From the IMG/VR virus record IMGVR_UViG_3300020042_004684, positions 1-33,392 of that record: a DNA stretch of 33,392 nucleotides. The stretch is one strand, 5' to 3'. A model generated the notes under the pieces. That model was not told the origin of the DNA, made no database searches, and worked only from the letters and a program-made list of their open reading frames with translations. The position numbers were made by a program, and so were the translations under genes. The stretch's first letter is position 1, and each line of letters begins with the position of its first letter. The DNA is from a virus. Taxonomy: Duplodnaviria; Caudoviricetes. This document shows, piece by piece, positions 8,781 to 25,755 of the stretch.

Positions 8781-8793
8781 CATAAGGATGAAT

Positions 8794-9491: not shown

Positions 9492-9492
9492 T

Positions 9493-10430: not shown

Positions 10431-10432
10431 GT

Positions 10433-10514: not shown

Positions 10515-10519
10515 GTATT

Positions 10520-11719: not shown

Positions 11720-11940
11720 GTTGTTCCCCTTGCGCGGATGGCGGCGGCTACCATGTGGCAGCCTTGTGCTTCGGCTTCTTTTGCTGCGGCCTCACGCTCA
11801 TCAGCACGGGCTGCTGCTTCTACCAAGGCTTCTTTGATAGCAATGATTTCTTTATCAAACTCACCCGCAAAAATTGAGTCCTCGTGGTTCATTCTTTCAA
11901 ATGTGTCAAGCGCCAGCTTCAATGCTTTATCTTTAGTCAT
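11716..11940 (-). CDS. Hypothetical protein
   Basis: SD AAGGAG; EREA..AIRARGTT end shared with 25756..25986. Confidence 0.7.
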   Translation of the reverse strand: MTKDKALKLALDTFERMNHEDSIFAGEFDKEIIAIKEALVEAAARADEREAAAKEAEAQGCHMVAAAIRARGTT

Positions 11941-12157
11941 GTCTTACTCCTTAATGTTGTGGGCGGCTTTGGTGGCACGATCAGAAAATACCCAGCAAAA
12001 ATAAAACCCCAAAAGCATCGACGCTGTAAACATCCAATCAACGGTTTTCAAAAAAGCCGCGAGAGTCAATAAAATTGCGCTAATGACTGCTGCTGATTTT
12101 CAGTAGCTTGGCGAGCCAATCCAATTCCAAATTGCTTTCATGTCTTACTCCTTAATG
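11937..12157. repeat. 20-bp direct repeat TCATGTCTTACTCCTTAATG
   Basis: Copies at 11937-11956 and 12138-12157; on the minus strand it is an SD plus start codon unit. Confidence 0.85.
11944..12141 (-). pseudogene. Two-TM membrane protein gene with in-frame TGA at codon 14
   Basis: SD AAGGAG plus ATG 12141; reads MKAIWNWIGSPSY*KSAAVISAILL...AAHNIKE-stop; TGA at 12100-12102. Confidence 0.6.
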
Positions 12158-12174
12158 ATCAATAAATTTGTTCA

Positions 12175-12390
12175 TCACTTCCCCCAATACCAAACAGTAA
12201 ACAACATTATTGCTGCGGGCACAGTTATAAAAGCGATCAATCCTTTAAAACTATCAGTAACGTCCTCGTATGGGTCATCTGGCGAACGATGCAAATTTAT
12301 GAACGCCTCGCTCACTTCTTTAGCGCGTTGCTTTCTGATAGGGCAGTCCCGCCCTTGTGTGCATTCACCGTTTGCGTTACAGCAGTTCAT
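12175..12390 (-). CDS. Small Cys-rich protein with C-terminal TM
   Basis: MNCC..C.QGRDCP.RKQR; homolog at 25538..25753. Confidence 0.7.
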   Translation of the reverse strand: MNCCNANGECTQGRDCPIRKQRAKEVSEAFINLHRSPDDPYEDVTDSFKGLIAFITVPAAIMLFTVWYWGK

Positions 12391-12629
12391 TTGTTTCTCT
12401 CCTTTAGCATGGCATCTGCCATTTCGTATGAAGCCTTCGCTATTTCCCCCATCCATCTTTTAGCAATGTCTGATTCGTCGTGAATTGCATCGTCTATTAA
12501 AACCCCTTGCATAGCTAACCCCGCAAAGTGGTCACGCAAGGTCATGCTATGAGCATAACCACCAGTGCGCTCCAACCATGTGGATGCTTCCGCAAATTGC
12601 TCCATTGCTAATGTGTGGGTATCTTTCAT
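12387..12629 (-). CDS. Conserved phage hypothetical protein
   Basis: MTLRDHFAGLAMQG..YEMADAMLKER motif; ATGA coupling. Confidence 0.75.
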   Translation of the reverse strand: MKDTHTLAMEQFAEASTWLERTGGYAHSMTLRDHFAGLAMQGVLIDDAIHDESDIAKRWMGEIAKASYEMADAMLKERNK

Positions 12630-12817
12630 TTGTACTCCTCCATGCGCGTATTCAAACGCTCTATACGGCCTATATTAAGGTCAAGCACCGCCTGGGCATA
12701 CTCTACTGCGCCTTCGGCATCAAGGCGGTCTAAGTGGGCCTGGGCAAGCTCTCGCTGGATAACTTCGGCTGGCGTTAAGTCGCGGTAGTAATCCTTCAGA
12801 AATTTAAGAAATCGCAT
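12626..12817 (-). CDS. Small coiled-coil hypothetical protein
   Basis: Homolog at 25350..25541. Confidence 0.7.
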   Translation of the reverse strand: MRFLKFLKDYYRDLTPAEVIQRELAQAHLDRLDAEGAVEYAQAVLDLNIGRIERLNTRMEEYK

Positions 12818-13085
12818 ACCATTCCCTTTCTTGACGTTTAGCATAAGATTTGACAGTCTTACCTGTCAACCCAACTAGACCATTACGCTCCATTTCGGGC
12901 AAGCGCCTAGCTACTTGGTGTCCGTCCATTACGGCAAAGAAAGCAATCCCGTCTTTACCCAGTGGGCCTTGCTCAATCAAAGTTTTAAGGATTAACGCTG
13001 CATGAGCTTTGGCAAGGTCTTTTGCCTCGTCAGCCGCTTGCCAGCTTGTGATAGGGTCAGTGTTTCTAGCGCGATAGTGTTCCAT
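12804..13085 (-). CDS. Putative winged-helix DNA-binding protein
   Basis: RARNTDPITS..VARRLPEMER..G pattern; near-identical to 25082..25363. Confidence 0.7.
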   Translation of the reverse strand: MEHYRARNTDPITSWQAADEAKDLAKAHAALILKTLIEQGPLGKDGIAFFAVMDGHQVARRLPEMERNGLVGLTGKTVKSYAKRQEREWYAIS

Positions 13086-13093
13086 GATGCCTC

Positions 13094-13330
13094 CTAAAAA
13101 GGTGCTTCAAAGTCATCTTTGGGAAAGCCCTCATCTTTTGGCTTTGGCTCATTGATGTAAGCCCAACCATTCCAGCCGCCTTCCATCAATGGTGTGACAT
13201 CCAGCTTTAGCATATCGCCGCTTTTGGTTTCAATGATTGACCCGATGCGGGTGTAGCGATTCTTTGTTGTACCTTGGGCATTGGTGTATTTGCCGCTGAT
13301 TACGGAAATTTCTTTTTTGATCTTGGACAT
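13094..13330 (-). CDS. Small SSB-like protein
   Basis: Beta-rich, acidic tail ending DDFEAPF; follows ERF and exonuclease. Confidence 0.6.
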   Translation of the reverse strand: MSKIKKEISVISGKYTNAQGTTKNRYTRIGSIIETKSGDMLKLDVTPLMEGGWNGWAYINEPKPKDEGFPKDDFEAPF

Positions 13331-13332
13331 AA

Positions 13333-13980
13333 TTAACCTTCAATGATTGCGTTAAGTTGTTGAATTTGCACGTTTACTTCAGCTAAGAAATTGACAATTT
13401 CCGCTTCCATATCTTGAATAAAAGCATCATCACGGAAAACCCGTTTGACAAACAATTGCGCTTTGGCTGGCATCCTGGGGTCAAATACAACGTAATCGCA
13501 CCAGTCGCGTTCAGTGCAAGCCATCTGGAATTGCATTTGCGTGTTGTACTTGCTAGGCACTTTTCCGGTCAATAGCGTGTCAATCATGGTTGCAGTGTTT
13601 GGGCACTTTATCTCGACCAAGCCAAAAAGCCCAACAAGGCCATCAGGCGAGGCTCCAGCCCACTCAATCTTAGGATGGGGTACGAAGCCTACTTCCTCGA
13701 CCATTTCGCCTGTTTTAGCCTCATACGCAGCCCGTGCAAACGGTTCCTGCTCAGTACCCCATTCCATTGCGGCGTTGGTAAATCCGTCCGCTTTGGTTTG
13801 GGTAAGACGTTCACAGACCAGTTGAGCCATGTAGTTATCGCGGCTGGTGCTGTATCCGCTTTTGGTCTTAGCCATTAGGTCGGCAACCCTGCTGGCGGTC
13901 ACTTTGCCCAGACGGGCGGTAAACCATGAATCCGTGCCTTGTTCAATTAGTCCAAGCCATGCGTTAGGTAAATCAGACAT
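13333..13980 (-). CDS. YqaJ/lambda-exonuclease family recombination nuclease
   Basis: QGTDSWF.ARLGKVTAS, GASPDGLV, VEIKCP, YNTQMQFQM motifs. Confidence 0.93.
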   Translation of the reverse strand: MSDLPNAWLGLIEQGTDSWFTARLGKVTASRVADLMAKTKSGYSTSRDNYMAQLVCERLTQTKADGFTNAAMEWGTEQEPFARAAYEAKTGEMVEEVGFVPHPKIEWAGASPDGLVGLFGLVEIKCPNTATMIDTLLTGKVPSKYNTQMQFQMACTERDWCDYVVFDPRMPAKAQLFVKRVFRDDAFIQDMEAEIVNFLAEVNVQIQQLNAIIEG

Positions 13981-14545
13981 TTTTTAATTCCTTTAAGCGT
14001 TTGTTTTTTACTGCAATGACTTTTGCTTGATACACCTGGTCGCCATCACAGCAGGCATAAGCGCCGGTGTAGGCAAGTTTCAATTCGTCTACGGTTGCAC
14101 AGGTAGCCATAACGGCTAATTGCTCCTCGATAAACCTGACGTTCGGTTCTGACTTTTCTACAACCTCACGCTTGCGGCTGGCTGCGTTGCCATCGTCATC
14201 CTCTGGAGCAATGCCACAAGCTGCCATTAGGCTGTACCTACGGGCGTATGTCAGCGCCGAGCCGTACCCTTGCGGGTCTTGCTTGGCAGCTGGAACGTGC
14301 AGCTTGCCGCACTCAATCATCTCGCCTGATTCGTGAATGAAGATAGTTTCAACAGTCACGCCAGTGAGGTCTTCACTGGTGCGCTGAACAAGAGCAATAC
14401 CAGCCCCATTCAGGCCTTCAATGACTGCCTCTACGCAAGCCGAGAGGTCTGCATATCTGCTTTTGAAGTGCGGGTTAGTGGATGATTTAAGGGCAGGGCC
14501 AAAGGCTTTTTGAGCCTTAACCAATGCTGTTGCTATTTGTTTCAT
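13973..14545 (-). CDS. erf: ERF-family single-strand annealing protein
   Basis: NPHFKSRYADL and QGYGSALTYARRYSL..GI..EDDDG motifs. Confidence 0.92.
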   Translation of the reverse strand: MKQIATALVKAQKAFGPALKSSTNPHFKSRYADLSACVEAVIEGLNGAGIALVQRTSEDLTGVTVETIFIHESGEMIECGKLHVPAAKQDPQGYGSALTYARRYSLMAACGIAPEDDDGNAASRKREVVEKSEPNVRFIEEQLAVMATCATVDELKLAYTGAYACCDGDQVYQAKVIAVKNKRLKELKNV

Positions 14546-14700
14546 AGGTCACCTCCAAAATCTAAGCCACATTTTTCACAAGTAAAGTACCAAATTACCG
14601 CTATGTCGTCATAAGTATGGCGTGTAAGGTCGCCACAATCATTTCCGCATTCGGGGCATTCGTGATCTTCAAGCTCTTTTAAGTTGTTGTTAGTAATCAT
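14542..14700 (-). CDS. Small zinc-ribbon protein
   Basis: CPECG..CEKCG; TAATG coupling; arm A only. Confidence 0.65.
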   Translation of the reverse strand: MITNNNLKELEDHECPECGNDCGDLTRHTYDDIAVIWYFTCEKCGLDFGGDL

Positions 14701-14783
14701 TACAGTGCCCATCCGTAAACTAAAACCCACGCAAGGGAAATGCCGATAAACACGGCGAGAGTGATGTCTTTTGCTTTGTTCAT
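14700..14783 (-). CDS. 27-aa single-TM peptide (not in ORF track)
   Basis: MNKAKDITLAVFIGISLAWVLVYGWAL; homolog at 23514..23600; SD AAGGAG. Confidence 0.7.
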   Translation of the reverse strand: MNKAKDITLAVFIGISLAWVLVYGWAL

Positions 14784-14992
14784 GTTGTTACTCCTTCAGC
14801 GCAATTGATTGCTGTATGTATTTCGTGGTGGATGTCGCCTAGATCAGTGTGCATCCATGTATGCACAGGCCGAAAAAATGCGTAGAGTGAGAATTCGCAG
14901 ATGTTGATTGTTTCTGCCATCATTGCGGGAGTGATTAAGCCTTGGTGTAGGGCTTCCTCGTACTCTGCTTGAAGTAGTGCTATGTCTTTCAT
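14780..14992 (-). CDS. Hypothetical early protein
   Basis: Distant homolog at 23309..23521; ATGA coupling. Confidence 0.7.
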   Translation of the reverse strand: MKDIALLQAEYEEALHQGLITPAMMAETINICEFSLYAFFRPVHTWMHTDLGDIHHEIHTAINCAEGVTT

Positions 14993-15267
14993 GCTGTGTA
15001 CTCCAGTGCGCTTAGTTTGCTGATGCGGGTGTTGATGTCCATCACGGTCTTGTTGAAGTCGGACATTGCCCTTGCTTTTTGTGCCTCCAGCGCGGCGATC
15101 TGCTGCGCTGTTGGGTCGTAGTTGTCGGGGACATCCATCTCAATTTCTTGTTCGCCAACAAAGGTGTAATTTTCTGAATCTACGGGGTAAGCAAAAGGCA
15201 CAAACTTGCCTTCAGACTCAAATGAATATTTACAAAAATAAATACGGATTGTGGTTTTGATTTTCAT
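14989..15267 (-). CDS. Conserved hypothetical early protein
   Basis: Homolog at 23031..23312 (VPDNYDPTAQQIAALE). Confidence 0.8.
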   Translation of the reverse strand: MKIKTTIRIYFCKYSFESEGKFVPFAYPVDSENYTFVGEQEIEMDVPDNYDPTAQQIAALEAQKARAMSDFNKTVMDINTRISKLSALEYTA

Positions 15268-15321
15268 GATGTTTTCCTTAAAGACCCTTGCGGGATTGAT
15301 GGGGCCAAAGCCCCGTTTGGT

Positions 15322-15471
15322 TTAAATTAAGTGCCTTGCTGAGACTGGTATGTAACCGTACTTTTTCCACTCCATCCTAATAAGTGGGCTGTACGGGGTT
15401 TTGTTTTTGTCTGCATTTGCCAATGCTCCATGAGTTTGGCTGCGAACTTTATAAATTTCACTTTTGCTCAT
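15322..15471 (-). CDS. 49-aa first early gene (not in ORF track)
   Basis: MSKSEIYKVRSQ...ARHLI; SD AGGA; same slot as 22441..22698. Confidence 0.6.
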   Translation of the reverse strand: MSKSEIYKVRSQTHGALANADKNKTPYSPLIRMEWKKYGYIPVSARHLI

Positions 15472-15515
15472 TTTGTTTTCCTAAAAAGACCCCGAGAAGT
15501 TCAGGGCATGGCTGA

Positions 15516-15545
15516 ATTATAAATCACATTTGTGTAATTTTATAA
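15516..15545 (-). promoter_or_regulatory. Leftward early promoter with operator
   Basis: TTATAA-18-TATAAT on minus; operator-like ATCACATTTGTGTA (15523-36) in the spacer; conserved in arm B. Confidence 0.7.
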
Positions 15546-15609
15546 GTCTTTTAAAAATATAAATTTATGGGTTTTGTGTTTCCGATAGTTTTTTACAATG
15601 AGCAATGAC

Positions 15610-15627
15610 TACACAATCGTGTATAAT
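15610..15627 (+). promoter_or_regulatory. Operator palindrome overlapping the -10 of the cro-like promoter
   Basis: TACAC-AATC-GTGTA (15610-23) overlapping TATAAT (15622-27); identical in arm B. Confidence 0.7.
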
Positions 15628-15635
15628 TCTATGGG

Positions 15636-15815
15636 ATGGACATCTTAGAAATCGCAATCAAGGCATCGGGCGGCACGGGTCGCCTGGCCTACATCCTGGA
15701 CGTAAAGCAGAACGTGGTGAGCAACTGGCGGCAGCGTGGAGTGCCAAAGGGCTGGGAGCAAGTGCTGCGGTATCGGTTCAAGAAACAGATTGCCGAAGCG
15801 GAAAAATTGGGGTAA
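15636..15815 (+). CDS. Cro/YdaS-like HTH regulator, 59 aa (not in ORF track)
   Basis: MDILEIAIKASGGTGRLAYILDVKQNVVSNWRQRGVP; homolog at 22095..22274. Confidence 0.85.
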   Translation: MDILEIAIKASGGTGRLAYILDVKQNVVSNWRQRGVPKGWEQVLRYRFKKQIAEAEKLG

Positions 15816-15818
15816 AGT
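15790..15818 (+). promoter_or_regulatory. Sigma70 promoter for the replication operon
   Basis: TTGCCG-17-TAAAGT; arm B has TTGCCG-17-TAGAAT. Confidence 0.65.
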
Positions 15819-15823
15819 TAGGG

Positions 15824-15890
15824 CACGGCTACCTTTAGCGGGGGAAAAGACGATTCATCACCGTCCTGCCGATGCTTCTTTTCAGTGATG
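15824..15890 (+). ncRNA. Candidate structured leader RNA with pseudoknot (arm A copy)
   Basis: P1 CGGC/GCCG, P2, GAAAA, P3 GACG/CGUC, loop CAUCAC pairs with downstream GUGAUG; covaries with arm B. Confidence 0.65.
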
Positions 15891-15913
15891 CGAACCGACG
15901 ATGTGAGGTTGAA

Positions 15914-16693
15914 ATGGCTAATAAAGTCGATATTTGGATGCCGCTATACGTGGCAGACTATCTTTCCGCTACTTCCCGATTGACTACAGAGCAGCATGGG
16001 GCTTACCTACTGCTGCTGATGGACTACTGGAAAAACGGCGCTCCCCCAAACAATGATGCAGTTTTAGCGCAGATCACCAAGTTATCGCCAGATGCTTGGA
16101 GTAATGCTCGGACTATGCTTGAGCCATTCTTTGAAGTATCAGAAAAGCAGTGGATTCAAAACAGGGTTGAGTCTGAAATGGAAAAGGCCAACCACAACAA
16201 AAAAGCCAACATAGAGCGTGGCAAGGCTGGCGCACAGGCTAGATGGGGTAAAAAGGATAGTCCGAGCATAGTTGGAGCAATGCTTGAGCAATGCTTGACA
16301 GATAGCTCTTCACCTTCACCTTCACCTTCATCTATACCTACACCTACAAAGAAGAATACAGTCGCCCCGCCTAGCGGCGTGACGGATTCTGTTTGGCAGG
16401 ATTGGATAAGTTTGCGTAAAGCCAAACGCGCAGCAGTCACCCAGACCGCCATTGACGGAATAGAGCGCGAAGCACGCAAAGCAGGGGTAAGCCTACAGAC
16501 AGCCTTGGAAACGTGCTGTGCAAGGGGCTGGACAGGCTTTAAGGCCGATTGGCTGCAAGGCAAGACAGAGCAGAAATCATTTGCCGAAAAGGACTACGAT
16601 TTCAAACGTGCAAGATGGGAAGCAATGACCGGAAGAACGCAAGGCGAAGAAATGAAACCATTTTTGGAGTTAGAAGATGACACAACCAATTGA
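15914..16693 (+). CDS. Replication initiator, DUF1376/YdaU-like
   Basis: WMPLYVADYL..T..LTTEQHGAYLLLLMDYW; SD GAGG; internal iteron-like repeats. Confidence 0.85.
   Translation: MANKVDIWMPLYVADYLSATSRLTTEQHGAYLLLLMDYWKNGAPPNNDAVLAQITKLSPDAWSNARTMLEPFFEVSEKQWIQNRVESEMEKANHNKKANIERGKAGAQARWGKKDSPSIVGAMLEQCLTDSSSPSPSPSSIPTPTKKNTVAPPSGVTDSVWQDWISLRKAKRAAVTQTAIDGIEREARKAGVSLQTALETCCARGWTGFKADWLQGKTEQKSFAEKDYDFKRARWEAMTGRTQGEEMKPFLELEDDTTN
16091..16330. repeat. Iteron-like repeats, putative origin
   Basis: ATGCTTG/ATGCTCG clusters at 16092-16124 and 16257-16300; 13-bp inverted repeat 16104-16116/16257-16269; CTTCAC tandem at 16308-16330. Confidence 0.6.
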
Positions 16694-17117
16694 CCGCTTG
16701 TTTGAACGCTTGTCTATGACCTACGGCATTGCTTGGGACAACTCGATAGGCACAGCCCCGCTAAACGAAATAAAGTCGTTTTGGATGAATCAGCTTACAG
16801 GCTTTATGCAAAGCAAAGAATCCATGATGGCTATTTCTTGGGCGCTGAATCATCTGCCGGAACGACCGCCAAACCTGGTGCAATTCAAAAACCTATGCTA
16901 CCAAGCACCAGCGGTGGAAAAGCCGCAGCTACCAAGCCCACCAGCCGACCCAGAACGGGTAAAGCAGGAATTTGCGAAGCTGGCAGGGATGAACAAGGTA
17001 AAGCAAGACCCAAAGGACTGGGCGAGGAAAATATTGGGTGACTATGCGGCTGGAGTAAAAAAGTCTCCCACGGTGTTGAAAATGGCCCGTGATGCTTTAA
17101 AAAACAATGTTCAATAA
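16677..17117 (+). CDS. Putative helicase loader (lambda P-like position)
   Basis: IDRLFERL..TYG..W, LPERPPNL.QFKNLC; follows the initiator; homolog at 20826..21266. Confidence 0.6.
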   Translation: MTQPIDRLFERLSMTYGIAWDNSIGTAPLNEIKSFWMNQLTGFMQSKESMMAISWALNHLPERPPNLVQFKNLCYQAPAVEKPQLPSPPADPERVKQEFAKLAGMNKVKQDPKDWARKILGDYAAGVKKSPTVLKMARDALKNNVQ

Positions 17118-17277
17118 ATCCCGCCAGCGTATTTTTGACCACTACCTAATGCTTTGCAAAGAACCAGGGTGGAAGGACTACGCTTGGCAGCGGGTGAAAG
17201 AGCTAGACAAAGAGCCTGTTTATGCAGGAATAAAGGACTACATCATGGAGCAAATGAAACATGGAGCAATTAAATGA
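17107..17277 (+). CDS. 56-aa conserved hypothetical protein (not in ORF track)
   Basis: MFNKSRQRIFDHYLMLCKEPGWKDYAWQRVKELD; homolog at 20663..20836. Confidence 0.75.
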   Translation: MFNKSRQRIFDHYLMLCKEPGWKDYAWQRVKELDKEPVYAGIKDYIMEQMKHGAIK

Positions 17278-17753
17278 GTTGGCTCTTTTCGCAGGCGCTG
17301 GCGGAGGCATTCTTGCCGGAAAGCTGCTTGGATGGAGAACAGTCTGCGCTGTTGAGTGGGAGCCGTACCCAGCAAGCGTACTGTGCGCCCGACAAAATGA
17401 TGGATTTCTCGCGCCTTTCCCAATTTGGGATGACGTACAAACCTTTGACGGAAAACCTTGGAGAGGAATTGTTGACGTTGTATCTGGCGGGTTTCCATGC
17501 CAAGACATCAGCGCCGCAGGAAAAGGCGCAGGAATTGACGGAGAACGAAGCGGGATGTGGGGAGAAATGGCACGCATCATTTACGAAGTACGACCCCGAT
17601 TTGCGTTTGTGGAAAACTCACCAATGCTCACTTCTAGGGGACTTGGAACCGTTCTTGGAGACTTGGCCTCAATGGGGTTTGATGCGAAATGGGGAGTGTT
17701 GGGAGCAGCGGACGTTGGAGCAAATCACCAACGGGACAGAATTTGGATTGTCG
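17261..17753 (+). CDS. C5 cytosine DNA methyltransferase, truncated at the junction after motif VIII
   Basis: Motifs I FAGAGG, IV GFPCQ, VI VENS, VIII HQRDRIWIV; the rest of the ORF to 17911 is antisense terS. Confidence 0.9.
17274..17753 (+). CDS. Overlapping +1-frame ORF, candidate second MTase subunit (truncated)
   Basis: Open across the whole MTase; own SD GGAG at 17263-66; ATGA-coupled to the stop of 17107..17277. Confidence 0.6.
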
Positions 17754-17756
17754 TAT
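17748..17756. other. Inversion/chimera junction between arm A and arm B
   Basis: MTase (+) and TerS (-) both lose their expected C-termini around TTGTCG; gene order is mirrored on either side. Confidence 0.85.
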
Positions 17757-18072
17757 CTCCAGCCATTACTTTTTGGAATAGGGTTTTCCCTACCTGTGCG
17801 TTTGCCTTTGATTTGCCGCTGACTAACTCGGAACTAAAGTGCGCCCGTAGCGTGTCAATGTGTATGCCATCCCGCACCAGTGCGCCAATCTGTTCGATGG
17901 GCAAGCCGTAGCCGCTAAGTGCTTCTACCTGTTTGCGCTCGGCATCGGTTGGCTGAAAGGCTGGTCGGCCTGCGCCTGGTTGCGCTCCACCGCCGTTAGG
18001 ATAGCGTGCGCCACCCTTCTTCCCTTTTGTTTGAGTTGGTTTTTCTTCAATGGCTTGTTTCTTGCTTATCAT
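17749..18072 (-). CDS. terS: Putative terminase small subunit, 3'-truncated
   Basis: GGAQPGAGRP..PTDAERKQVEALSGYG..TLRAHF..EL..GK.KANAQV.KTLFQK..GDT; follows ParB and Mom genes. Confidence 0.7.
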
Positions 18073-18751
18073 TCGTAACCTCCGCGAAAGGTTGGTTTTC
18101 TGCGTATATTGGAGCGGGTGGGTCGGTGTTGCGCCGCCGCTGTTCTGGCTGGTCGCCAGTCATTGCCTGCTTCACCCGCTTAGGATATGGTTTTGCCAAT
18201 GGCGAAATCTTAGCATTCATCTCTTTGTCAAGTGGCATTAAATACCTATGTTTGCCAGTCACCACCTTTTTTGGTAAGTTGCTTTGATTTACACCAGCAT
18301 CATCAACTGTTTTTTTATGTGACCACTTGCCTTTATAAAATACTTTTAGTGCCTTGCCACTTGGCCCAGTATAAAGCCAGTTACATGCTTGGTAAATCCC
18401 ACCATGATGGCCTTGATCTGGGTCAGCATAAGAAACTATCAAACGCAAATTCTTTTGTGACTTCACCAAAAACTTCACTGCCAATGCCATTATTTTACTA
18501 ACTGGCACTTCATGCTTTGTCAGAGCAATCCTTGTCAACTCACAGCCTTCCTCTTGCTGCAATCCAAAGGGTTTAAGCATGTTGTTGTTAGCTCCTCTGC
18601 TAAAAACAACAACCCCAATAAACTTATCTTCTTCCCATGCACCCACCTTTACAAGTTTCCCAACAGGCAAACATTTGCTGTAGTGCCAATGCTCACAAGC
18701 ATATTTGGTGGCCTCATGACTGGCCCAGTCCATCTTAAACTTGACGGGCAT
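18047..18751 (-). CDS. mom: Mom-family adenine-modifying enzyme (GNAT-like fold)
   Basis: HYSK, CELTRIAL, IVSYADPDQGHHGGIYQACNWLYTG, KHRYL, YPK motifs. Confidence 0.8.
   Translation of the reverse strand: MPVKFKMDWASHEATKYACEHWHYSKCLPVGKLVKVGAWEEDKFIGVVVFSRGANNNMLKPFGLQQEEGCELTRIALTKHEVPVSKIMALAVKFLVKSQKNLRLIVSYADPDQGHHGGIYQACNWLYTGPSGKALKVFYKGKWSHKKTVDDAGVNQSNLPKKVVTGKHRYLMPLDKEMNAKISPLAKPYPKRVKQAMTGDQPEQRRRNTDPPAPIYAENQPFAEVTNDKQETSH
18110..18179 (-). ncRNA. tRNA-Gly-like element inside the mom 3' end
   Basis: Acceptor GCGGGUG/CACCCGC plus U73 and CCA; anticodon arm CUGG/CCAG with 7-nt loop CG-ACC-AG; T-like arm GGCGG/CCG(A)CC with 7-nt loop; shortened D region. Confidence 0.7.
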
Positions 18752-19253
18752 CAAACTCTTTTCCGCAGTGTGGGCAAGCAATCCATTTAGGGTCTAGCTC
18801 ATCCAGTTTGCCTTGGTCATCTTCAGTGGCTGGTTCAAACTCTGGTGTCTGTAATGCTTTGATTTCTTCAGCCTTAAAGCCAGTCAGATCAAGGTCAAAG
18901 CCTAATTCGCCAATTTCAGCCAACTCTAACGCCAGCATTTCATTGTCCCACCCTGCATTTAGCGCCAACTTATTGTCTGCCAGCACGTAAGCCCGTTTCT
19001 TAGCATCACTCCAGCCCTTTGCCACCATCACAGGCACTTCGGTCATCTTGAGACGCTGTGCCGCCAGTGTGCGCCCATGCCCCGCAATGATGCCGCCTTG
19101 CTCGTCCACCAGAATCGGGGTAGTCCAGCCCCATTCCTTGATGCTTGCCGCAATTTGGCCTATCTGCTCGTCTGAATGTGTCCTGGCGTTACGGGCGTAA
19201 GGAATCAGTTTGTCAATGCTCCAGCGTTCTACCTTGTCTGCGGGATTAGTCAT
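18735..19253 (-). CDS. ParB/Srx N-terminal domain protein with C-terminal CPHC
   Basis: LIPYARNARTHS..QIAASIKEWGWTTPILVD..IIAGHGR..ADNKLA. Confidence 0.88.
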   Translation of the reverse strand: MTNPADKVERWSIDKLIPYARNARTHSDEQIGQIAASIKEWGWTTPILVDEQGGIIAGHGRTLAAQRLKMTEVPVMVAKGWSDAKKRAYVLADNKLALNAGWDNEMLALELAEIGELGFDLDLTGFKAEEIKALQTPEFEPATEDDQGKLDELDPKWIACPHCGKEFDARQV

Positions 19254-19534
19254 TTGTCCAACATTTCTTTGGTTTTCATGTGAGCATTGTGCCACATTTG
19301 TGATTTTTCGTCCTTGCTCATTTTGCCTTGGTCTAGGTTGGCATGGCAAGTAAAGCACAGTGCGGCCACAAACTCATCGCTGGCCTTGATTCCCCGCCCC
19401 TTGCCGTGTTCTCCAGCGTTTGAATGTGCCGCTACTATTGTCCCATCCTCTGCCCCGCAGTGTTGGCAGGGTAATGCTCTGCAGGCTTCTAGTCGCTTTT
19501 TGTTTCGCAAATACTTTGTTTTGGGAAACATCAT
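19250..19534 (-). CDS. DUF1364/YbcO-like Zn-binding putative nuclease
   Basis: PCQHCG..VAAHSN..GKGRGIKASD..LCFTCH. Confidence 0.75.
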   Translation of the reverse strand: MMFPKTKYLRNKKRLEACRALPCQHCGAEDGTIVAAHSNAGEHGKGRGIKASDEFVAALCFTCHANLDQGKMSKDEKSQMWHNAHMKTKEMLDK

Positions 19535-20028
19535 GCCGAAAACCTCACGCCTTTTTCTGCCCCGAATGCTTCCCGCAATTTTTGGCCTCTCGGAATTCCT
19601 TTTCTCACAGATATTAAGGGCGTTGTTACCGCCTCAACTTCGCCCCATCCATCTGACAAGCGAACTCTTATAAGTCTTGACTTTACGCCATAGACCTCAG
19701 CCCATTCTGCAACGGTTTTTGTGATGCCATTTATTTCTATAAAGCGGCAGCTTTTCCGGTTGCGGTTTTGCACGGTTCGCGTAGCCCATCGGCAATTTTC
19801 TTTAAAATATCCAAAGTTGTTATCTATTCGATCAATAGACTCGTTTAAATTTGGCTCTCCCATGTCTTCAAGGAAATTGGCAAAAACCAACCAGCGATCA
19901 CAGACTTTAATTCCTCGCGCTCCATATTTTGCGTAAGCTGGCTCATTTTGATTATTGCAACGAGTCAACATACATGACCAAATTCGATATACGCGCGTGT
20001 GCCGTTTGCCATGTTTAAAATTACTCAT
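19531..20028 (-). CDS. HNH-type free-standing homing endonuclease
   Basis: YRIWSCM..RC, YGARGIKVCDRW..F.NFLEDMG, SIDRIDN..GY..ENCRWAT..QNRN. Confidence 0.85.
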   Translation of the reverse strand: MSNFKHGKRHTRVYRIWSCMLTRCNNQNEPAYAKYGARGIKVCDRWLVFANFLEDMGEPNLNESIDRIDNNFGYFKENCRWATRTVQNRNRKSCRFIEINGITKTVAEWAEVYGVKSRLIRVRLSDGWGEVEAVTTPLISVRKGIPRGQKLREAFGAEKGVRFSA

Positions 20029-20422
20029 AGGTTCCCCATTTAACATTACGTTCCGCACCAAATGCGTTCATCAATTCCATTAGGTCGCACATTTCGGCTT
20101 TGGTCATCTTGCTGGTTGATTGCCCCAGCACCACAAATCCACCGTCTAAGCCTGGCACAACGTCCTGCTTTTTAAGTGCCGCAGTGAAAACGTGCTTCCA
20201 TTCCTCCGGCGTAAGTTTTCGCCCATACCAGTCAACTTGGTCACTTATTTCGTCAAGCATGGCCCAAAGTCGGGAGTTTTGCTCAAGGCTGCGGGTGGCC
20301 GGTTTAATCTCCAGCACCATCTTATGCCCTGCCATTAGTGCGCTTTTTAGCTGCGGCCAGATTGTTTTTGTCATTGCTGCATGGGCCTGGACTGGCTCCA
20401 AGCATTGAATTGCAAGTTTCAT
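20021..20422 (-). CDS. ninB: NinB/Orf-family recombination protein
   Basis: RSLEQNSRLWAML.EISDQVDW.G.KL..EEWK..F..STSKM..M..L. Confidence 0.88.
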   Translation of the reverse strand: MKLAIQCLEPVQAHAAMTKTIWPQLKSALMAGHKMVLEIKPATRSLEQNSRLWAMLDEISDQVDWYGRKLTPEEWKHVFTAALKKQDVVPGLDGGFVVLGQSTSKMTKAEMCDLMELMNAFGAERNVKWGTYE

Positions 20423-20685
20423 TTCATTACTCCAATCATTCGTAAGGCAGCTTCAGGGCCATCAATACGCACTAGTGTGCCTCCGGCCCATTTTGCAAAA
20501 AAAGCCTCTTGTAAATCTGTTAAACGCTTTTTAGGCCCATCTTTAATTTCTACTAAAAACGTATGCCCTTTATAGCCTACGAGTAGGTCTACAGGCAGGC
20601 CAATAATCCAAACGTAAGCGCCAGCCGCCCTAAGTGCGGTCACCACTTGAGTGGAGTTAGCGTCAATCCTTGCTGCTCGGCGCAT
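20419..20685 (-). CDS. Small PD-(D/E)XK nuclease (VRR-NUC/resolvase-like)
   Basis: RAARIDAN..PVDLLVGY..LVEIK..LT..Q..F. Confidence 0.75.
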   Translation of the reverse strand: MRRAARIDANSTQVVTALRAAGAYVWIIGLPVDLLVGYKGHTFLVEIKDGPKKRLTDLQEAFFAKWAGGTLVRIDGPEAALRMIGVMK

Positions 20686-20836
20686 TCATCTGCTCCATGA
20701 TGTAGTTCTTTATTCCTGCGTAAACAGGCTCTTTGTCCAGTTCTTTTACCCGCTGCCAAGCGTAGTCTTTCCAGCCTGGAGCTTTGCAAAGCATTAGGTA
20801 GTGGGCAAAAATACGCTGGCGGGATTCATTCCACAT
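20663..20836 (-). CDS. 57-aa conserved hypothetical protein (not in ORF track)
   Basis: Homolog of 17107..17277. Confidence 0.75.
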   Translation of the reverse strand: MWNESRQRIFAHYLMLCKAPGWKDYAWQRVKELDKEPVYAGIKNYIMEQMNAPSSKD

Positions 20837-21266
20837 TAATTCTTAGGGCATTGCGGGCCATTTGAACCACTGTTGGAGATTTTTTTACTCCAGCGGCATA
20901 GTCACCCAATATTTTCCGCGCCCAGTCCTTTGGATCGTGATTTACCTTTTTCATTCCTGCTAATTTCGCAAATTCCTGCTTTACCCTTTCTGGGTCTGCT
21001 GGCGGGCTAGGTAGCTGCGGCCTTTCCACCGCTGGCGCTTGATGGCATAGGTTTTTGAATTGCACCAAATTCGGCGGGCGTTCCGGCAGATGATTCAGCG
21101 CCCAAGAAATTGCCATCATGGATTCTTTGCTTTGCATGAATCCTGACAACGAATTGAGCCAAAACGACTTGATTTCGTTTAGCGGGGCTGACCCTATGGA
21201 ATTGTCCCAAGCGTTCCCGTAGGTCAGCGAAAGTCGTTCAAAAAGGCGGTCAATGGGCTGTGTCAT
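20826..21266 (-). CDS. Putative helicase loader
   Basis: Near-identical to 16677..17117. Confidence 0.6.
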   Translation of the reverse strand: MTQPIDRLFERLSLTYGNAWDNSIGSAPLNEIKSFWLNSLSGFMQSKESMMAISWALNHLPERPPNLVQFKNLCHQAPAVERPQLPSPPADPERVKQEFAKLAGMKKVNHDPKDWARKILGDYAAGVKKSPTVVQMARNALRINVE

Positions 21267-21990
21267 CTTCAATCTCCAAAAGTGGTGTGAATTCTTGGTC
21301 TGATGTCCTGCCGGTCATTGCTTCCCAGCGGGCACGTTTGAAATCGTAGTCCTTTTCGGCAAAGGATTTCTGTTCGCCTTTGTCCTTTAGCCATTCGGCC
21401 TTGAAGCCTGTCCAGCCCCTTGCACAGCACGTTTCTAAAGCTGCCTGTAGGCTTACCCCTGCTTTCTTTGCTTCGCGCTCTATGCCATCAATAGCGGTCT
21501 GGGTGACTGCTGCGCGTTTGGCTTTACGCAAACTTAACCAATCCTGCCAAACAGAATCCGTCACGCCGTTAGGCGGGGCGACTGTATTATTTGGTTTATG
21601 GTTTATAGTTTCTGGTTTATAGTTTATAGTTGCCTTAGCGATGGGTTGCGTGTCGGATGCCACTGGGATACCCACTGGGTTCTTTTTCCTACCACCGAGG
21701 CGACCATTAGCCCTGTTTTTCTCAGCCATTGCGTGATAAACAGCAATTACATCTTCGCAACGGGCATGAAACCATCCGTCTTCATGTTTCTCAAACATAT
21801 CATTTAACACATCTCGAACTACTGAGGCTTCCACTCGGATGCGTCTGGCAACCCATTGGGTATCCAACGGGATTTTTTGCTCTGAGTCGTAATACATATC
21901 CAAAAGTCGGCGATAAGCCAAATCTTCTTCGTTGGATAAATGCCCTGTGGCGGCTTTGTAGTCACCAATGTTAAATTGGTAATAGTGCAT
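21250..21990 (-). CDS. Replication initiator, DUF1376/YdaU-like (second subtype)
   Basis: MHYYQFNIGDY...LSNEEDLAYRRLLDMYY; C-terminus shared with 15914..16693. Confidence 0.88.
   Translation of the reverse strand: MHYYQFNIGDYKAATGHLSNEEDLAYRRLLDMYYDSEQKIPLDTQWVARRIRVEASVVRDVLNDMFEKHEDGWFHARCEDVIAVYHAMAEKNRANGRLGGRKKNPVGIPVASDTQPIAKATINYKPETINHKPNNTVAPPNGVTDSVWQDWLSLRKAKRAAVTQTAIDGIEREAKKAGVSLQAALETCCARGWTGFKAEWLKDKGEQKSFAEKDYDFKRARWEAMTGRTSDQEFTPLLEIEDDTAH
21591..21875. repeat. Iteron-like repeats, putative origin
   Basis: CCCANTGG-type clusters at ~21640-21681 and ~21832-21872; (G/A)GTTTAT heptamer tandem at 21592-21630. Confidence 0.6.
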
Positions 21991-22006
21991 GGTTTTCCTT
22001 CGCTGT

Positions 22007-22082
22007 CCTCCACTGACAAGGAAACTTCGGCAGGCGGGGAGGCTCGCTTTTCGGTACGCTCATGACTTCGTACCTAGCCGGG
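22007..22082 (-). ncRNA. Candidate structured leader RNA with pseudoknot (arm B copy)
   Basis: P1 CGGC/GCCG, P2 GGUACG/CGUACC, GAAAA, P3 GCG/CGC, loop CCUCC pairs with downstream GGAGG. Confidence 0.65.
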
Positions 22083-22091
22083 TTTCACAAA

Positions 22092-22120
22092 ATTCTATAC
22101 CACTTTTCCCGCTTCGGCAA
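22092..22120 (-). promoter_or_regulatory. Sigma70 promoter for the replication operon
   Basis: TTGCCG-17-TAGAAT. Confidence 0.7.
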
Positions 22121-22274
22121 TCTGTTTCTTGAACTTGTAGCGCAGAACTTGCTCCCAGGCTTTGGGTGTGCCTCGCCGCCGCCAGTTGCTCACCACGTTC
22201 TGCTTTACGTCCAAGATGTAGGCCAGGCGACCCGTGCCGCCTGCTTCCTTGATTGCTATTTCTAAGATGTCCAT
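22095..22274 (-). CDS. Cro/YdaS-like HTH regulator (not in ORF track)
   Basis: MDILEIAIKEAGGTGRLAYILDVKQNVVSNWRRRG; homolog of 15636..15815. Confidence 0.85.
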   Translation of the reverse strand: MDILEIAIKEAGGTGRLAYILDVKQNVVSNWRRRGTPKAWEQVLRYKFKKQIAEAGKVV

Positions 22275-22282
22275 CCCATAGA

Positions 22283-22300
22283 ATTATACACGATTGTGTA
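22283..22300 (-). promoter_or_regulatory. Operator palindrome overlapping -10
   Basis: TACAC-N4-GTGTA at 22287-22300 overlapping TATAAT on minus. Confidence 0.7.
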
Positions 22301-22364
22301 GTCATTGCTCATTGTAAAAAACAATCGGAAACGCAAAACCGATAAATTTATATTTTTCAAAGTC

Positions 22365-22394
22365 TTGTAAAAGTACACAAATGTGATTTATAAT
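22365..22394 (+). promoter_or_regulatory. Early promoter with operator
   Basis: TTGTAA-18-TATAAT; TACACAAATGTGAT at 22374-87. Confidence 0.7.
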
Positions 22395-22440
22395 TCAGCC
22401 ATGCCCTGAACTTCTCGGGGTCTTTTTAGGAGTAAGCAAC

Positions 22441-22698
22441 ATGATTAAATTTAACAAGTTCCACGTTACCAACGGCGCAATCAAAGCCCGTGTCAGTTAC
22501 CACTTAGACAACCGTGGTGACAAACGCAATTGCGTCACGATGTATGCAAGAGACTACACCCGTGAGCTGGGTCAACTCTTTGCAGACAATTACCAAAACA
22601 ACACCGACAGCATGACCGACTATTTTGAAACAGGTCGGGTTGTTCTTTTTGAAGATCACCCACTTTATGCACAAGCTCGCGCAAGGGCAGAACAGTAA
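22441..22698 (+). CDS. Hypothetical first early gene
   Basis: SD AGGAG; NNTDSMTDYFE motif. Confidence 0.8.
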   Translation: MIKFNKFHVTNGAIKARVSYHLDNRGDKRNCVTMYARDYTRELGQLFADNYQNNTDSMTDYFETGRVVLFEDHPLYAQARARAEQ

Positions 22699-22752
22699 AC
22701 CCAACGGGGCTTCGGCCCCATCAATCCCGCAAGGGTCTTTTTAGGAGAAATC

Positions 22753-23034
22753 ATGCACACACCCGCACCCTGGCTCTTATCTGATGCCAGATCAACCAAG
22801 GTGGATTTAATCAACAGCGCAAAGGGTCACGCCATTGGCGAGATCGTTTGGGTTGATGTTCGCAATCCATCAGACGCAAAACTTATTGCCGCAGCACCTG
22901 ATCTGCTAGAGGCGCTGAAAATTTGCGAATCAAACATCGCTTTGCTTCTTTGGTCAGCCCATCCAAAAGTTTATAGCATGTGGCTTGATGTTGTCCGTTC
23001 CGCCATCGACAAAGCAATAGGAGAAAAAGCATGA
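22753..23034 (+). CDS. Phage hypothetical protein (LIAAAPDLLEAL family)
   Basis: HTPAPW..DAKLIAAAPDLLEAL; SD AGGAG; arm B only. Confidence 0.8.
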   Translation: MHTPAPWLLSDARSTKVDLINSAKGHAIGEIVWVDVRNPSDAKLIAAAPDLLEALKICESNIALLLWSAHPKVYSMWLDVVRSAIDKAIGEKA

Positions 23035-23312
23035 AAATCAAGACCACCATCTACATTCACTTCCAGAAATACAAGTGGGAAACCGAAGGCACTTACCAAG
23101 TGTATTCTTTCAAAGCAAATGACGATGACACTCGCACCTTTGTCTGTGAGCAACAAATCGAAGTCGAGGTTCCAGACAATTACGATCCAACAGCCCAGCA
23201 GATTGCCGCGCTAGAAGTTCAGAAGGCAAAGGCAATGTCCGACTTCAACAATACCGTAAAAGAAATAAACACCCGAATCAGCAAACTGCAAGCACTGGAG
23301 TACACAGCATGA
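23031..23312 (+). CDS. Conserved hypothetical early protein
   Basis: Homolog of 14989..15267. Confidence 0.8.
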   Translation: MKIKTTIYIHFQKYKWETEGTYQVYSFKANDDDTRTFVCEQQIEVEVPDNYDPTAQQIAALEVQKAKAMSDFNNTVKEINTRISKLQALEYTA

Positions 23313-23521
23313 GAGACATACACATTTTGTTAGCTGAATTCCGCGAGGCACTATTGCGCGGTTTCATTCCCCCCTTGGAAATGGCAAAGTTGCTAAACGA
23401 CATGAACTGGTCGCTTACCAAAAATTGGCCAGACATTCACAACGGCCTGTCTGACAACTTGGACGATGTGAGCGACAACCTTTGGACATCAATTCAACAA
23501 TTTGGAGAGCATGATGAATAA
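23309..23521 (+). CDS. Hypothetical early protein
   Basis: Distant homolog of 14780..14992. Confidence 0.7.
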   Translation: MRDIHILLAEFREALLRGFIPPLEMAKLLNDMNWSLTKNWPDIHNGLSDNLDDVSDNLWTSIQQFGEHDE

Positions 23522-23600
23522 AAAATTAGCAGACATTTCCCTTGCCGTGTTTATCGGCATATCTTTAGCTTACGCACTTGTTTACGGATGGTCACTATGA
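23514..23600 (+). CDS. 28-aa single-TM peptide (not in ORF track)
   Basis: MNKKLADISLAVFIGISLAYALVYGWSL; ATGA-coupled to erf. Confidence 0.7.
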   Translation: MNKKLADISLAVFIGISLAYALVYGWSL

Positions 23601-24211
23601 AAGTTTACAAAGCAATCAACGCCGTTCAATCTGAACTGGCAATCCTTGGCATCACAAAAAACCGCCGAAACCAACAAGGTAGCGGTTACAACTTTCGCGG
23701 TATTGATGACGTTTACAACACCATTGCACCTTTGTTGTCCAAACATGGATTGTGCATTTTGCCTCGCGTCTTATCGCGTGAGTGCATTGAACGCACCAGC
23801 AAATCAGGAGGCGGCTTGTTTTATGTCACCGTAGATGCTGAGTTTGATTTTGTATCCGCAGAAGATGGCAGCAAGCATACGGTTAAGACGTTTGGCGAGG
23901 CTATGGATAGCGGCGACAAGGCTACTAACAAAGCAATGTCAGCGGCATATAAATATGCTTGTTTTCAAGCATTTAGCATTCCCACAGAGGCCGACAATGA
24001 TGCAGATGCCCACACGCATGAACTTCAAAAGTCAGAACCAAACGTCAAATTTATTGAAGAACAATTAGGCGTTATGGCTACCTGTGCAACCGTGGACGAA
24101 TTGAAACTTGCTTACAACGGTGCTTATGCTTGTTGCGATGGAGACCAGGTGTATCAAGCAAAAGTAATTGCAGTAAAAAACAAACGCTTAAAGGAACTTA
24201 AAAATGTCTGA
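23597..24211 (+). CDS. erf: ERF-family single-strand annealing protein (second subtype)
   Basis: YNFRGIDDV..GEAMDSGDKATNKAMSAAYKY..F.IPTE; upstream of YqaJ. Confidence 0.88.
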   Translation: MKVYKAINAVQSELAILGITKNRRNQQGSGYNFRGIDDVYNTIAPLLSKHGLCILPRVLSRECIERTSKSGGGLFYVTVDAEFDFVSAEDGSKHTVKTFGEAMDSGDKATNKAMSAAYKYACFQAFSIPTEADNDADAHTHELQKSEPNVKFIEEQLGVMATCATVDELKLAYNGAYACCDGDQVYQAKVIAVKNKRLKELKNV

Positions 24212-24830
24212 TCTTATTGAACAGGGCACTGATGCATGGTTTACCGCCCGCATAGGCAAAGTAACCGCCTCGCGGGTTGCCGACTTAATGGCTAAGACCA
24301 AAAGCGGATACAGCACTTCGCGGGACAACTACATGGCACAACTGGTCTGTGAAAACATTACAAAAACCAAAGCGGAAGGATTTACCAACGCCGCAATGGA
24401 ATGGGGAACGGAACAGGAACCGTTCGCCAGAGCAGCGTATGAGGCAAAAACGGGCGTGATGGTTGAGGAGGTAGGGTTTGTGCCACATCCACTAATTGAG
24501 TGGGCTGGCGCGTCCCCTGATGGCCTTGTTGGGCCTGATGGCCTAGTAGAAATCAAATGCCCTAACACCGCAACCATGATTGACACACTTTTGACTGGCA
24601 AAGTACCTGGTAAGTACAACACGCAAATGCAATTTCAAATGGCTTGCACGGGTCGCCATTGGTGCGACTATGTTGTATTTGACCCAAGGATGCCAGCCAA
24701 AGCGCAACTGTTTGTCAAACGGGTTTTCCGTGATGATGCTTTTATTCAAGATATGGAAGCGGAAATTGTCAATTTCTTAGCTGAAGTAAACGTGCAAATT
24801 CAACAACTTAACTCAATCATTGAAGGCTAA
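24204..24830 (+). CDS. YqaJ/lambda-exonuclease family nuclease
   Basis: Near-identical to 13333..13980. Confidence 0.93.
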   Translation: MSDLIEQGTDAWFTARIGKVTASRVADLMAKTKSGYSTSRDNYMAQLVCENITKTKAEGFTNAAMEWGTEQEPFARAAYEAKTGVMVEEVGFVPHPLIEWAGASPDGLVGPDGLVEIKCPNTATMIDTLLTGKVPGKYNTQMQFQMACTGRHWCDYVVFDPRMPAKAQLFVKRVFRDDAFIQDMEAEIVNFLAEVNVQIQQLNSIIEG

Positions 24831-24832
24831 TT

Positions 24833-25072
24833 ATGTCCAAGATCAAAAAAGAAATCTCTGTTATCAGCGGCAAATACACCAATGCCCAAGGCCAAGCAAA
24901 GAACCGCTACACCCGCATCGGTTCAATTATTGAAACTAAAAGCGGCGATATGCTGAAGCTGGATGTAACCCCACTAATGGAAGGGGGCTGGAATGGTTGG
25001 GCTTACATCAACGAACCAAAACCAAAGGATGAGGGCTTTCCTAAAGATAACTTTGAAGATGTACCTTTTTAA
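24833..25072 (+). CDS. Small SSB-like protein
   Basis: Ends FEDVPF; homolog of 13094..13330. Confidence 0.6.
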   Translation: MSKIKKEISVISGKYTNAQGQAKNRYTRIGSIIETKSGDMLKLDVTPLMEGGWNGWAYINEPKPKDEGFPKDNFEDVPF

Positions 25073-25081
25073 GGATAAATC

Positions 25082-25753: not shown

Positions 25754-25755
25754 GT

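Follow-up and report, generated by a model that had tools for sequence, protein, structure and literature searches.

Within its 3′ end, the mom gene of a tailed phage carries a tRNAGly-like RNA of 70 nt that lacks a D arm. It was encountered in a window of 33,392 nucleotides, which represents the whole stretch of viral DNA analysed here (Duplodnaviria; Caudoviricetes; IMG/VR record IMGVR_UViG_3300020042_004684). The element is real and amounts to more than a chance fold. Judged from sequence comparisons, the marks recognized by glycyl-tRNA synthetase (GlyRS) are kept, those used in decoding have disappeared, and the RNA accompanies mom in several different layouts. Most likely, the RNA would be charged by GlyRS, excluded from the ribosome and used by Mom as a glycyl donor. 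The coordinates of the locus and of the parts of the RNA are collected in Table 1.

Table 1. The mom locus of the window and the anatomy of the RNA embedded in it
Feature	Position	Strand	Remarks
mom gene, 234 aa	18047..18751	-	GNAT/Mom domain extends to YPK (residue 191), followed by a predicted disordered tail (residues 192–234)
ParB-like partner gene	18735..19253	-	overlaps mom start; C-terminal CPHCGK zinc-ribbon-like motif
Terminase small subunit-like gene	17750..18072	-	starts 38 nt past CCA; interrupted at assembly junction near 17750; weak match to phrog_309 (E 3e-4)
D-armless tRNAGly-like RNA	18110..18179	-	G1 = 18179, 3′ A of CCA = 18110; based on fold, conservation and covariance model
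Acceptor stem, 5′ strand	18173..18179	-	G1, C2, G3 invariant; positions 4–7 covary
6-nt linker replacing D arm	18167..18172	-	terminal A12-G13 are the probable counterparts of positions 18–19
Pairing of linker G13 with T-loop C	18131 (C)	-	covariation among 112 short forms
Extended anticodon branch	18139..18166	-	2-bp helix G14–C41/C15–G40, internal loop, 5-bp stem, loop GACCA
Anticodon equivalent ACC	18151..18153	-	C35, C36 are GlyRS marks; A34 absent from cellular tRNAGly usage
T arm	18121..18138	-	5 bp, interrupted between positions 63 and 64 by a bulged A (18123); CGCAACA loop replaces TΨC
Acceptor 3′ strand, discriminator U73 (18113) and encoded CCA	18110..18120	-	

A sequence-only reading of the window had assigned the gene containing the RNA to the Mom family, an assignment that is borne out by both sequence and predicted fold. 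The ORF matches Pfam PF25680 with 141.6 bits (curated cut-off 27.1; E 3e-41), the domain ending at the YPK motif, and phrog_1384 with an E value of 1e-55. The structural model (pLDDT 84.7) resembles phage Mu Mom (PDB 8bv8), which is the best Foldseek match (E 4e-11, TM 0.60–0.68) and also the best structure match by sequence profile. Mu residues H58, Y59, R111, S124, D149 and Y159 align with H23, Y24, R74, S85, D110 and Y120 of the window Mom, and the position of Mu R151 is occupied by D112 in this alignment. Whereas the core blocks are modelled with pLDDT values of 79–97, the tail reaches 41–62; its residues 192–215 are a read-through of the tRNA-like RNA.

The genes are arranged in the order replication genes, NinB, HNH genes, ParB-like gene, mom and terminase small subunit-like gene. 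By this order mom heads the packaging genes, which suggests that it is expressed late. A promoter scan of positions 17600–19600 returned 4 weak sites against 2.1 expected, which makes no case for an internal promoter, and no terminator. In one homologue, P0098 (389 aa), ParB and Mom are fused. The window itself is a head-to-head chimera, whose arms (4804–17258 and 20685–32059) are inverted paralogues of two related phage genomes with 70–94% identity. The C5 methylase gene (17261+) and the terminase small subunit-like gene are both broken at the ∼17750 junction, and outside contigs continue each of them differently; contigs from three runs depart from the window at 17750. A distance of 360 nt separates this junction from the RNA, and closely related sequences on other contigs show the same arrangement.

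The RNA runs on the minus strand from 18179 to 18110, its G1 coinciding with the third base of the Lys codon in YPK (ORF 18751 to 18047). Its 70 letters match exactly those quoted in the sequence-only reading, and the 7-bp acceptor, encoded CCA, ACC loop and bulged T arm described there are reproduced by fold prediction, which yields a 7-bp acceptor stem, a 5-bp anticodon stem, a T arm with a bulged A and an unpaired UCCA. Taken alone, the folding energy of −27.1 kcal/mol (z −1.88) is suggestive at most, as 7 of 200 shuffled sequences fold equally well. Pairing probabilities of the acceptor stem are 0.85–1.0 within an mRNA context of 141–551 nt; the single best structure of a 301-nt stretch differs. 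The element goes undetected as a tRNA by ARAGORN and Rfam, just as had been anticipated for tRNA scanners, and Rfam matched no non-tRNA family either in the window stretch or in 20 loci. When a covariance model is trained on 45 relatives of the long (76-nt) type, with the window and every short form excluded, it retrieves the element as the sole match in the window, with 47.4 bits and an E value of 6e-9. With filters off, the runner-up between positions 10000 and 26000 scores 11 bits.

All GlyRS marks (G1–C72, C2–G71, G3–C70, U73, C35 and C36) are present in the window's element, together with CCA. The departures from a canonical tRNA comprise the missing D arm, A8, G33, A34, G55, the loop CGCAACA and an interrupted T stem. 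The D arm, U8, U33 and TΨC had been described beforehand as degenerate: the marks are indeed lost, but the D arm is absent outright, its place being taken by the G14–C41/C15–G40 helix. In three RNA sequencing runs, contigs match scattered parts of the window, none of those listed extending across the RNA, and in one further run of unspecified type a contig spans 18104–18378 with 2 differences; these matches are neutral as regards expression. Contig ends in 120 metagenome matches, which are mostly probable DNA assemblies and hence uninformative about RNA ends, do not pile up at G1 or at CCA.

Conservation of the element was surveyed from the side of the protein and from that of the RNA. Viral loci gathered by Mom homology alone provided 65 distinct mom genes with a complete 3′ end, and the element directly follows YPK in 62 of them. 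The script had passed 63: the first mom copy of L014 (loci are designated by L numbers), which has neither a GCG start nor CCA, was removed, and the element of L052 was shifted by one base. Of the three genes devoid of the element, two stand first in tandem mom pairs in which the second gene possesses it; the third is L084. Among 61 distinct copies, which are related by descent so that counts of this kind do not represent independent events, G1–C72, C2–G71, G3–C70, U73 and the bulged A are each invariant (61/61). The claim that the GlyRS identity elements are all in place thus extends beyond the window for pairs 1–3 and U73. CC lies inside the hairpin loop in 61/61 copies, and CCA is nearly constant (C74 in 59, C75 in 59 and A76 in 60). 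The interior of the acceptor stem varies freely and yet is paired in 59–61 of the 61 copies.

Covariation analysis and a comparison of the conserved ends with the encoded peptide had been proposed at the outset as checks, and both speak for the RNA. Mutual information (MI-APC) was scored over 780 column pairs on fixed end-anchored columns, MAFFT misplacing the 5′ ends of long forms. The top four pairs are the acceptor pairs 6:67, 7:66, 5:68 and 4:69, and the variable T-stem pairs rank 7–9. As the boundaries in the Mom-first set had been picked by best pairing, a second set was checked independently. This set was collected with a pattern confined to the 3′ part, the 5′ strand and the loop falling outside it: GCG and at least six of seven acceptor pairs are found in 189/193 copies, and CC in 182/185 hairpins. 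The 45 forms of the long class give a covariation score of 0.40, compared with 0.11 in shuffles (0/500 reach it) and no more than 0.20 in slid controls; in the gapless alignment of this class the D and anticodon arms are partly out of register, and its 19:55 count (17/45) was set aside. The acceptor–UCCA marks are kept, as is CC in the loop, while the overlying peptide among 120 proteins is read in three frames (64, 34 and 20 cases, plus one early stop and one protein without YPK). These patterns indicate that the structure of the RNA is under selection and that the overlying peptide is not.

The copies fall into two classes: forms of 74–79 nt with a D arm, and forms of 67–73 nt without one, to which the window's element belongs. 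In the short forms a 6-nt linker occupies the place of the D arm, and a helix of 2–3 bp lengthens the anticodon stem in 195/212 copies. The last base of the linker covaries with T-loop position 56 in 112 short forms (G–C 91, U–A 7, A–U 5), the U–A and A–U minority pairs coming from few lineages. This covariation of the 19:56 type points to an L shape whose elbow is preserved. Near-canonical tRNAGly sequences, called as such by ARAGORN and Rfam, occupy the same site in L016–L019 and still contain the bulge, so that a series appears to lead from a tRNA down to the minimal form. Decoding marks are eroded among 170 copies, with U33 in only 85, A34 in 64, mostly A at position 8 and mostly G at position 55. 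A tRNAGly(ACC) has been called universally missing in a review (PMC8007984). In a tree of 116 rows (FastTree), short and long forms are interleaved, and this topology supports no claim on origin; the window protein is left out of it, with the 91% identical L001 standing in, and the strict descriptor mislabels some element-bearing loci as lacking the element.

Several copies display variations of their own. T-loop positions 54:58 among 241 copies are U–A in 151, G–G in 45 and C–A in 24, a distribution that fits a kept non-canonical T-loop pair. In L531, L533, L535, L536, L543 and L598, A73 replaces U73 while CC and the bulge are kept, which may track hosts with the other GlyRS type. L281 (1457–1529) has an intact mom adjacent and a loop UUU without CC, pointing to a copy that has either ceased to function or switched to another amino acid. 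In L089 (1800–1869) the RNA is identical to that of the window in 69 of 70 positions (one T-loop base differs) and the tail is nearly identical, yet the Mom proteins are only 63% identical; the RNA thus seems to have been swapped between mom alleles at the YPK junction. Two distant Mom clades contain similar short forms.

Searches that start from the RNA lead back to mom. About 1,400 IMG/VR stretches conform to a strict pattern that describes the T arm and 3′ end. Mom is encoded within 900 nt of the element in 73 of the 81 viral matches whose flanks are complete, and 38/38 weak Mom matches were confirmed with PF25680. The other eight comprise five cut by contig ends, a mom deletion (L179), a copy convergent to a Mom-like GNAT gene (L126) and an orphan (L140). 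A tighter pattern finds 86 matches in 185,579 species genomes, spread over many phyla. Of these, 68 lie beside mom, as counted with an HMM that includes the element-encoded peptide, for which reason L278 was dropped; viral and metagenome counts relied on tail-free HMMs. The remaining genome matches are 3 chance hits, 8 near contig ends, 6 orphans with full flanks and the 1 dropped. In metagenomes the element follows mom in 65/75 matches with enough upstream DNA and stands without mom nearby in 10/75. Only some of the matches without mom in genomes and metagenomes are mom deletions.

Relative to mom, three layouts are observed: the RNA overlaps the 3′ end of the gene, or its 5′ end, where it mostly supplies the translated N-terminus, or it is convergent with the gene. 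For 62 genes of the window's clade with the 3′ layout, the stop codon falls after the RNA in 58, inside it in 4 and before it in none. A second Mom clade harbours the element in 79/80 loci, the sole miss being a truncated locus; its copies, read like those of the following sets with a model trained on bulged forms, show U73 in 66/66, the bulged A in 63 and a full CCA in 57 (imperfect in 9/66). A mixed third set yields 58 matches in 80 loci and a fourth 6/80; the 52 copies from these two sets, read with the same model, have U73 in 46 and A73 in 6, with an imperfect CCA in 10. By the covariance model, the element is absent at Mu, at 15 Mu-like loci (15 of 45 tested) and at 7 other GenBank mom genes. 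Together with its absence at 74/80 loci of the fourth set, this implies that the Mom family does not require the element. In L126 the RNA lies on the strand opposite the Mom-like GNAT gene; 14 nt upstream of the RNA is a sigma-70 promoter scoring 12/12, and a terminator follows directly after CCA. L248 and L244 are convergent copies too, the former with its own terminator. Tandem copies of the element occur in L193/L411 and L229 and suggest a role for dosage.

A number of individual loci depart from these layouts. L014 (525–1776) and L015 (512–1763) contain tandem mom paralogues with the RNA only at the second, its 3′ end being degenerate there. In L179, L629, L654 and L668, mom is partly or wholly deleted between the ParB and terminase genes, and the whole RNA or half of it remains. 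In L628 (3–917) and L245 (538–1529) the RNA sits beside genes other than mom, namely a divergent phrog_7858 gene in the former and, in the latter, a ParB-like phrog_7405 gene whose end overlaps the RNA; either gene possibly encodes another tRNA-dependent modifier. An identical short form of 68 nt is shared by L310, L613, L638, L645, L646, L652 and L660, in varying surroundings that lack mom. Near it lie a gene for an integrase or invertase and a 92-aa ORF assigned to no family, and the RNA is perhaps the cargo of a small mobile unit. Unbulged tRNAGly genes also occur near mom: annotated and convergent in Microbacterium phage MenE (L026, 1827–1901), unannotated and over the mom stop codon in Arthrobacter phage Sonny (L025, 1801–1875), and convergent about 460 nt downstream of mom in L451 (1951–2024).

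The chemistry that gives these observations a context had been brought up in the sequence-only reading and is in print. Mu Mom transfers glycine from Gly-tRNAGly to the N6 of adenine, the product of the family being 6-NcmdA, accepts all three Escherichia coli tRNAGly isoacceptors and rejects Gly-tRNAAla, the acceptor end being thought to be read; R111, S124, D149 and R151 are essential, and H58, Y59 and Y159 are important (PMC13219725). The first acceptor pairs, U73, C35 and C36 are what bacterial GlyRS recognizes (PMC9908026, PMC7826273), and exactly these marks are constant among the copies of the element. Affinity for EF-Tu is set almost wholly by the T-stem pairs 49–65, 50–64 and 51–63, and EF-Tu keeps ordinary Gly-tRNA away from FmhB, a transferase of staphylococci (PMC7826273). 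The invariant bulge sits between pairs 50–64 and 51–63; no report of a bulge at 63/64 being tried against EF-Tu was met in the literature searched. U73 guards Gly-tRNA from the deacylase DTD (PMC6097841), a protection that would matter for a carrier without EF-Tu cover.

A sequence of events can be proposed on this basis. The 70-nt RNA would be excised from a late transcript by RNase P and 3′ processing; the cut at G1 would leave a stop-less mom message ending just past the Mom domain and may couple the enzyme to its carrier. The released RNA would be glycylated by the host glycyl-tRNA synthetase, and the bulged A between 63 and 64 would spoil EF-Tu binding, so that the ribosome refuses the charged RNA. 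Mom would thereby gain a pool of glycine that EF-Tu cannot sequester and could use this private donor to modify adenine in phage DNA. Alternatively, the bulged A could be a positive mark for Mom. As Mu manages without such an RNA, the element would boost modification rather than enable it. Points that weigh against the donor role are the use of host tRNAGly by Mu Mom, the imperfect CCA or A73 of some copies in other clades, the matches that have no mom nearby, the unbulged tRNAGly genes of Sonny and MenE, and the alignment of Mu R151 with D112. The whole chain taken together, namely that one gene encodes an aminoacyl-transferase and its own minimal carrier, with the elbow kept, RNase P cutting in the Lys codon, charging by GlyRS, invisibility to EF-Tu and membership of a widespread class, is a possible but tentative proposition.

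The sequence-only reading had offered, beside a carrier, a substrate mimic within the mRNA. The former appears favoured, since there are convergent copies in which this RNA forms a gene of its own, complete with promoter and terminator. In a broader role in cis, the tRNA fold would serve the mom mRNA as a signal for processing or for binding, limiting a toxic enzyme and separating mom from the terminase message, through RNase P cleavage at G1 in 3′ forms, folding over the start region in 5′ forms, or binding of GlyRS or Mom. RNase P recognizes the acceptor–T helix, the elbow pair and CCA, in keeping with such a signal. The RNA overlaps the coding region in 62/62 and 62/66 3′ copies, the latter from the second Mom clade, and the translated N-terminus in most 5′ copies. 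In the window's clade a stop codon never precedes the RNA, so that its release must cut the coding region, a circumstance that fits a regulatory role equally well; moreover, Mom is toxic if expressed out of turn (PMC12707154). Nevertheless, the separate convergent copies with their own promoter or terminator (L126, L248) are unable to act within the mom mRNA. The strict U73, pairs 1–3 and C35–C36 make up the GlyRS set and exceed the needs of a nuclease signal, and an internal element has no chargeable 3′ end. Tandem copies, too, point to dosage. A main function in cis is unlikely for these reasons, and an effect in cis would be compatible with the donor function as a secondary role.

The remaining explanations fit worse than a glycyl donor. 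tRNAGly genes are common integration targets, and one orphan copy lies near an integrase gene (L310), as might be expected of a decayed attachment site or captured-tRNA relic kept by coding overlap. Such an origin is hardly probable, given that both strands of three stems and the tertiary pair change in step, that the peptide is not conserved in frame and that the T arm matches no common host tRNA. An attachment-site remnant in particular is contradicted by the covariation of the whole fold and by the lack of an integrase among the neighbours scanned, from 15872 to 21990, which comprise part of the window's ORFs. A translational tRNAGly that refills the pool drained by Mom would agree with the relatives called tRNAGly by ARAGORN and Rfam (L016–L019, MenE), yet it is scarcely to be reconciled with the window copy, which has no D arm and shows A8, G33, A34, G55 and the T-stem bulge; the rarity of the bulged pattern, found 86 times in 185,579 species genomes, likewise argues that the bulged RNA is not a housekeeping form. 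Finally, the RNA could be a decoy or replacement that shields the Gly-tRNA pool from defences or toxins attacking tRNAGly, or that soaks up deacylases, Mom being supplied indirectly. Toxins that choose tRNAGly by its acceptor stem do exist, such as FaRel2 (PMC11559606) and TacT (PMC13219725), and the acceptor end is the most conserved part of the element; a decoy is nonetheless very unlikely, for it predicts no tight linkage to mom across the 3′, 5′ and convergent layouts and has no need for C35–C36.

No account of a 3′, D-armless, bulged tRNA linked to mom, or of a donor role for one, was found in the literature searched, which comprised sources other than subscription journals. Neither does such an RNA appear in the text searched of PMC13219725, one supplement, a 2023 preprint and PMC7824862; the main supplement and source data of PMC13219725 lie outside this scope and may bear on novelty. 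The charged tRNA as the source of the glycine used by Mom is a recent result, and host tRNAs have been assumed to provide it until now. If the glycyl donor proposed here is correct, many phages and genomic islands bring a dedicated donor tRNA, and non-proteinogenic tRNAs extend from staphylococcal cell-wall synthesis to viral DNA hypermodification. The same proposal would explain the 'pseudo-tRNA' noted in Dehalococcoides islands in 2011, and why thousands of annotated Mom proteins have odd tails read in three frames. It would also provide a natural minimal substrate of GlyRS and RNase P and a one-base candidate anti-determinant for EF-Tu. Should the whole, more tentative chain set out above hold, each transcript would give the enzyme first and the carrier afterwards, tying the level of the former to the supply of the latter, and the RNA would be the first tRNA without a D arm to have a demonstrated function in bacteria. 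The RNA class is common, yet mostly missed by standard tRNA finders.

The closest precedent, described by McMurdie et al. in 2011, is a conserved 76-bp tRNAGly-like locus with a DCC anticodon; it lies in a mom homologue of Dehalococcoides ssrA islands, inside the initial 150 bp of the gene, no role being proposed in the part of the paper covered (PMC3146451). Both loci specify a tRNAGly-like RNA with a DCC-type anticodon (ACC in the window), inside mom and after parB. They differ in that the window's RNA has 70 nt, no D arm and a position at the 3′ end of mom, whereas the Dehalococcoides locus is a full cloverleaf at the 5′ end in a genomic island (PMC3146451). Dehalococcoidia genomes matched here show the same 5′ layout and a bulged T stem, and the covariance model containing their copies scores the window RNA at 47.4 bits.

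The non-proteogenic tRNAGly NP1–NP3 of Staphylococcus aureus, donors for FmhB, FemA and FemB, likewise keep the GlyRS marks and have altered D and T regions, and a partition from EF-Tu towards a tRNA-dependent transferase of the GNAT fold has been proposed for them as it is here (PMC7826273). The resemblance noted in the sequence-only reading stands to this extent, and ends where the weak EF-Tu pairs A49–U65, U50–A64 and A51–U63 of NP1–NP3 are replaced in the window by G–C, G–C, a bulged A and C–G, and where the D arm is absent. NP1–NP3 are, furthermore, host genes with a full cloverleaf, located outside the enzyme gene and serving peptidoglycan as acceptor, in contrast to a D-armless phage RNA inside mom with DNA as the proposed acceptor (PMC7826273). 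By analogy, the window RNA would work like these tRNAs in its proposed role, yet it fails their defining features. Mu Mom (Silva et al. 2026, PMC13219725; PDB 8bv8) belongs to the same family and shares the fold at 25% identity. Mu mom, in contrast, stops right past YPK without a tRNA-like element and is regulated by Com instead of being paired with ParB, and the R151 of its product aligns with D112 in the window Mom.

Two groups of irregular tRNAs offer structural parallels. In mitochondrial tRNASer(AGY), an organelle tRNA that is used in translation, a short linker stands where the D arm would be and the anticodon helix is extended. The linker and the extended helix are the same in the window RNA, which would act in a bacterial cell and outside translation. 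The 8/4 tRNAs with a bulged A51a, selC* tRNACys and a minor tRNASec (Mukai et al., PMC5389517), share with the window RNA a 12-bp acceptor branch interrupted by one bulge. They have an 8-bp acceptor, a 4-bp T stem and the bulge on the 5′ strand, as opposed to the 7/5 arrangement, 3′-strand bulge, Gly identity and lack of a long variable arm in the window, and some irregular tRNAs are charged yet unused in translation (PMC5389517).
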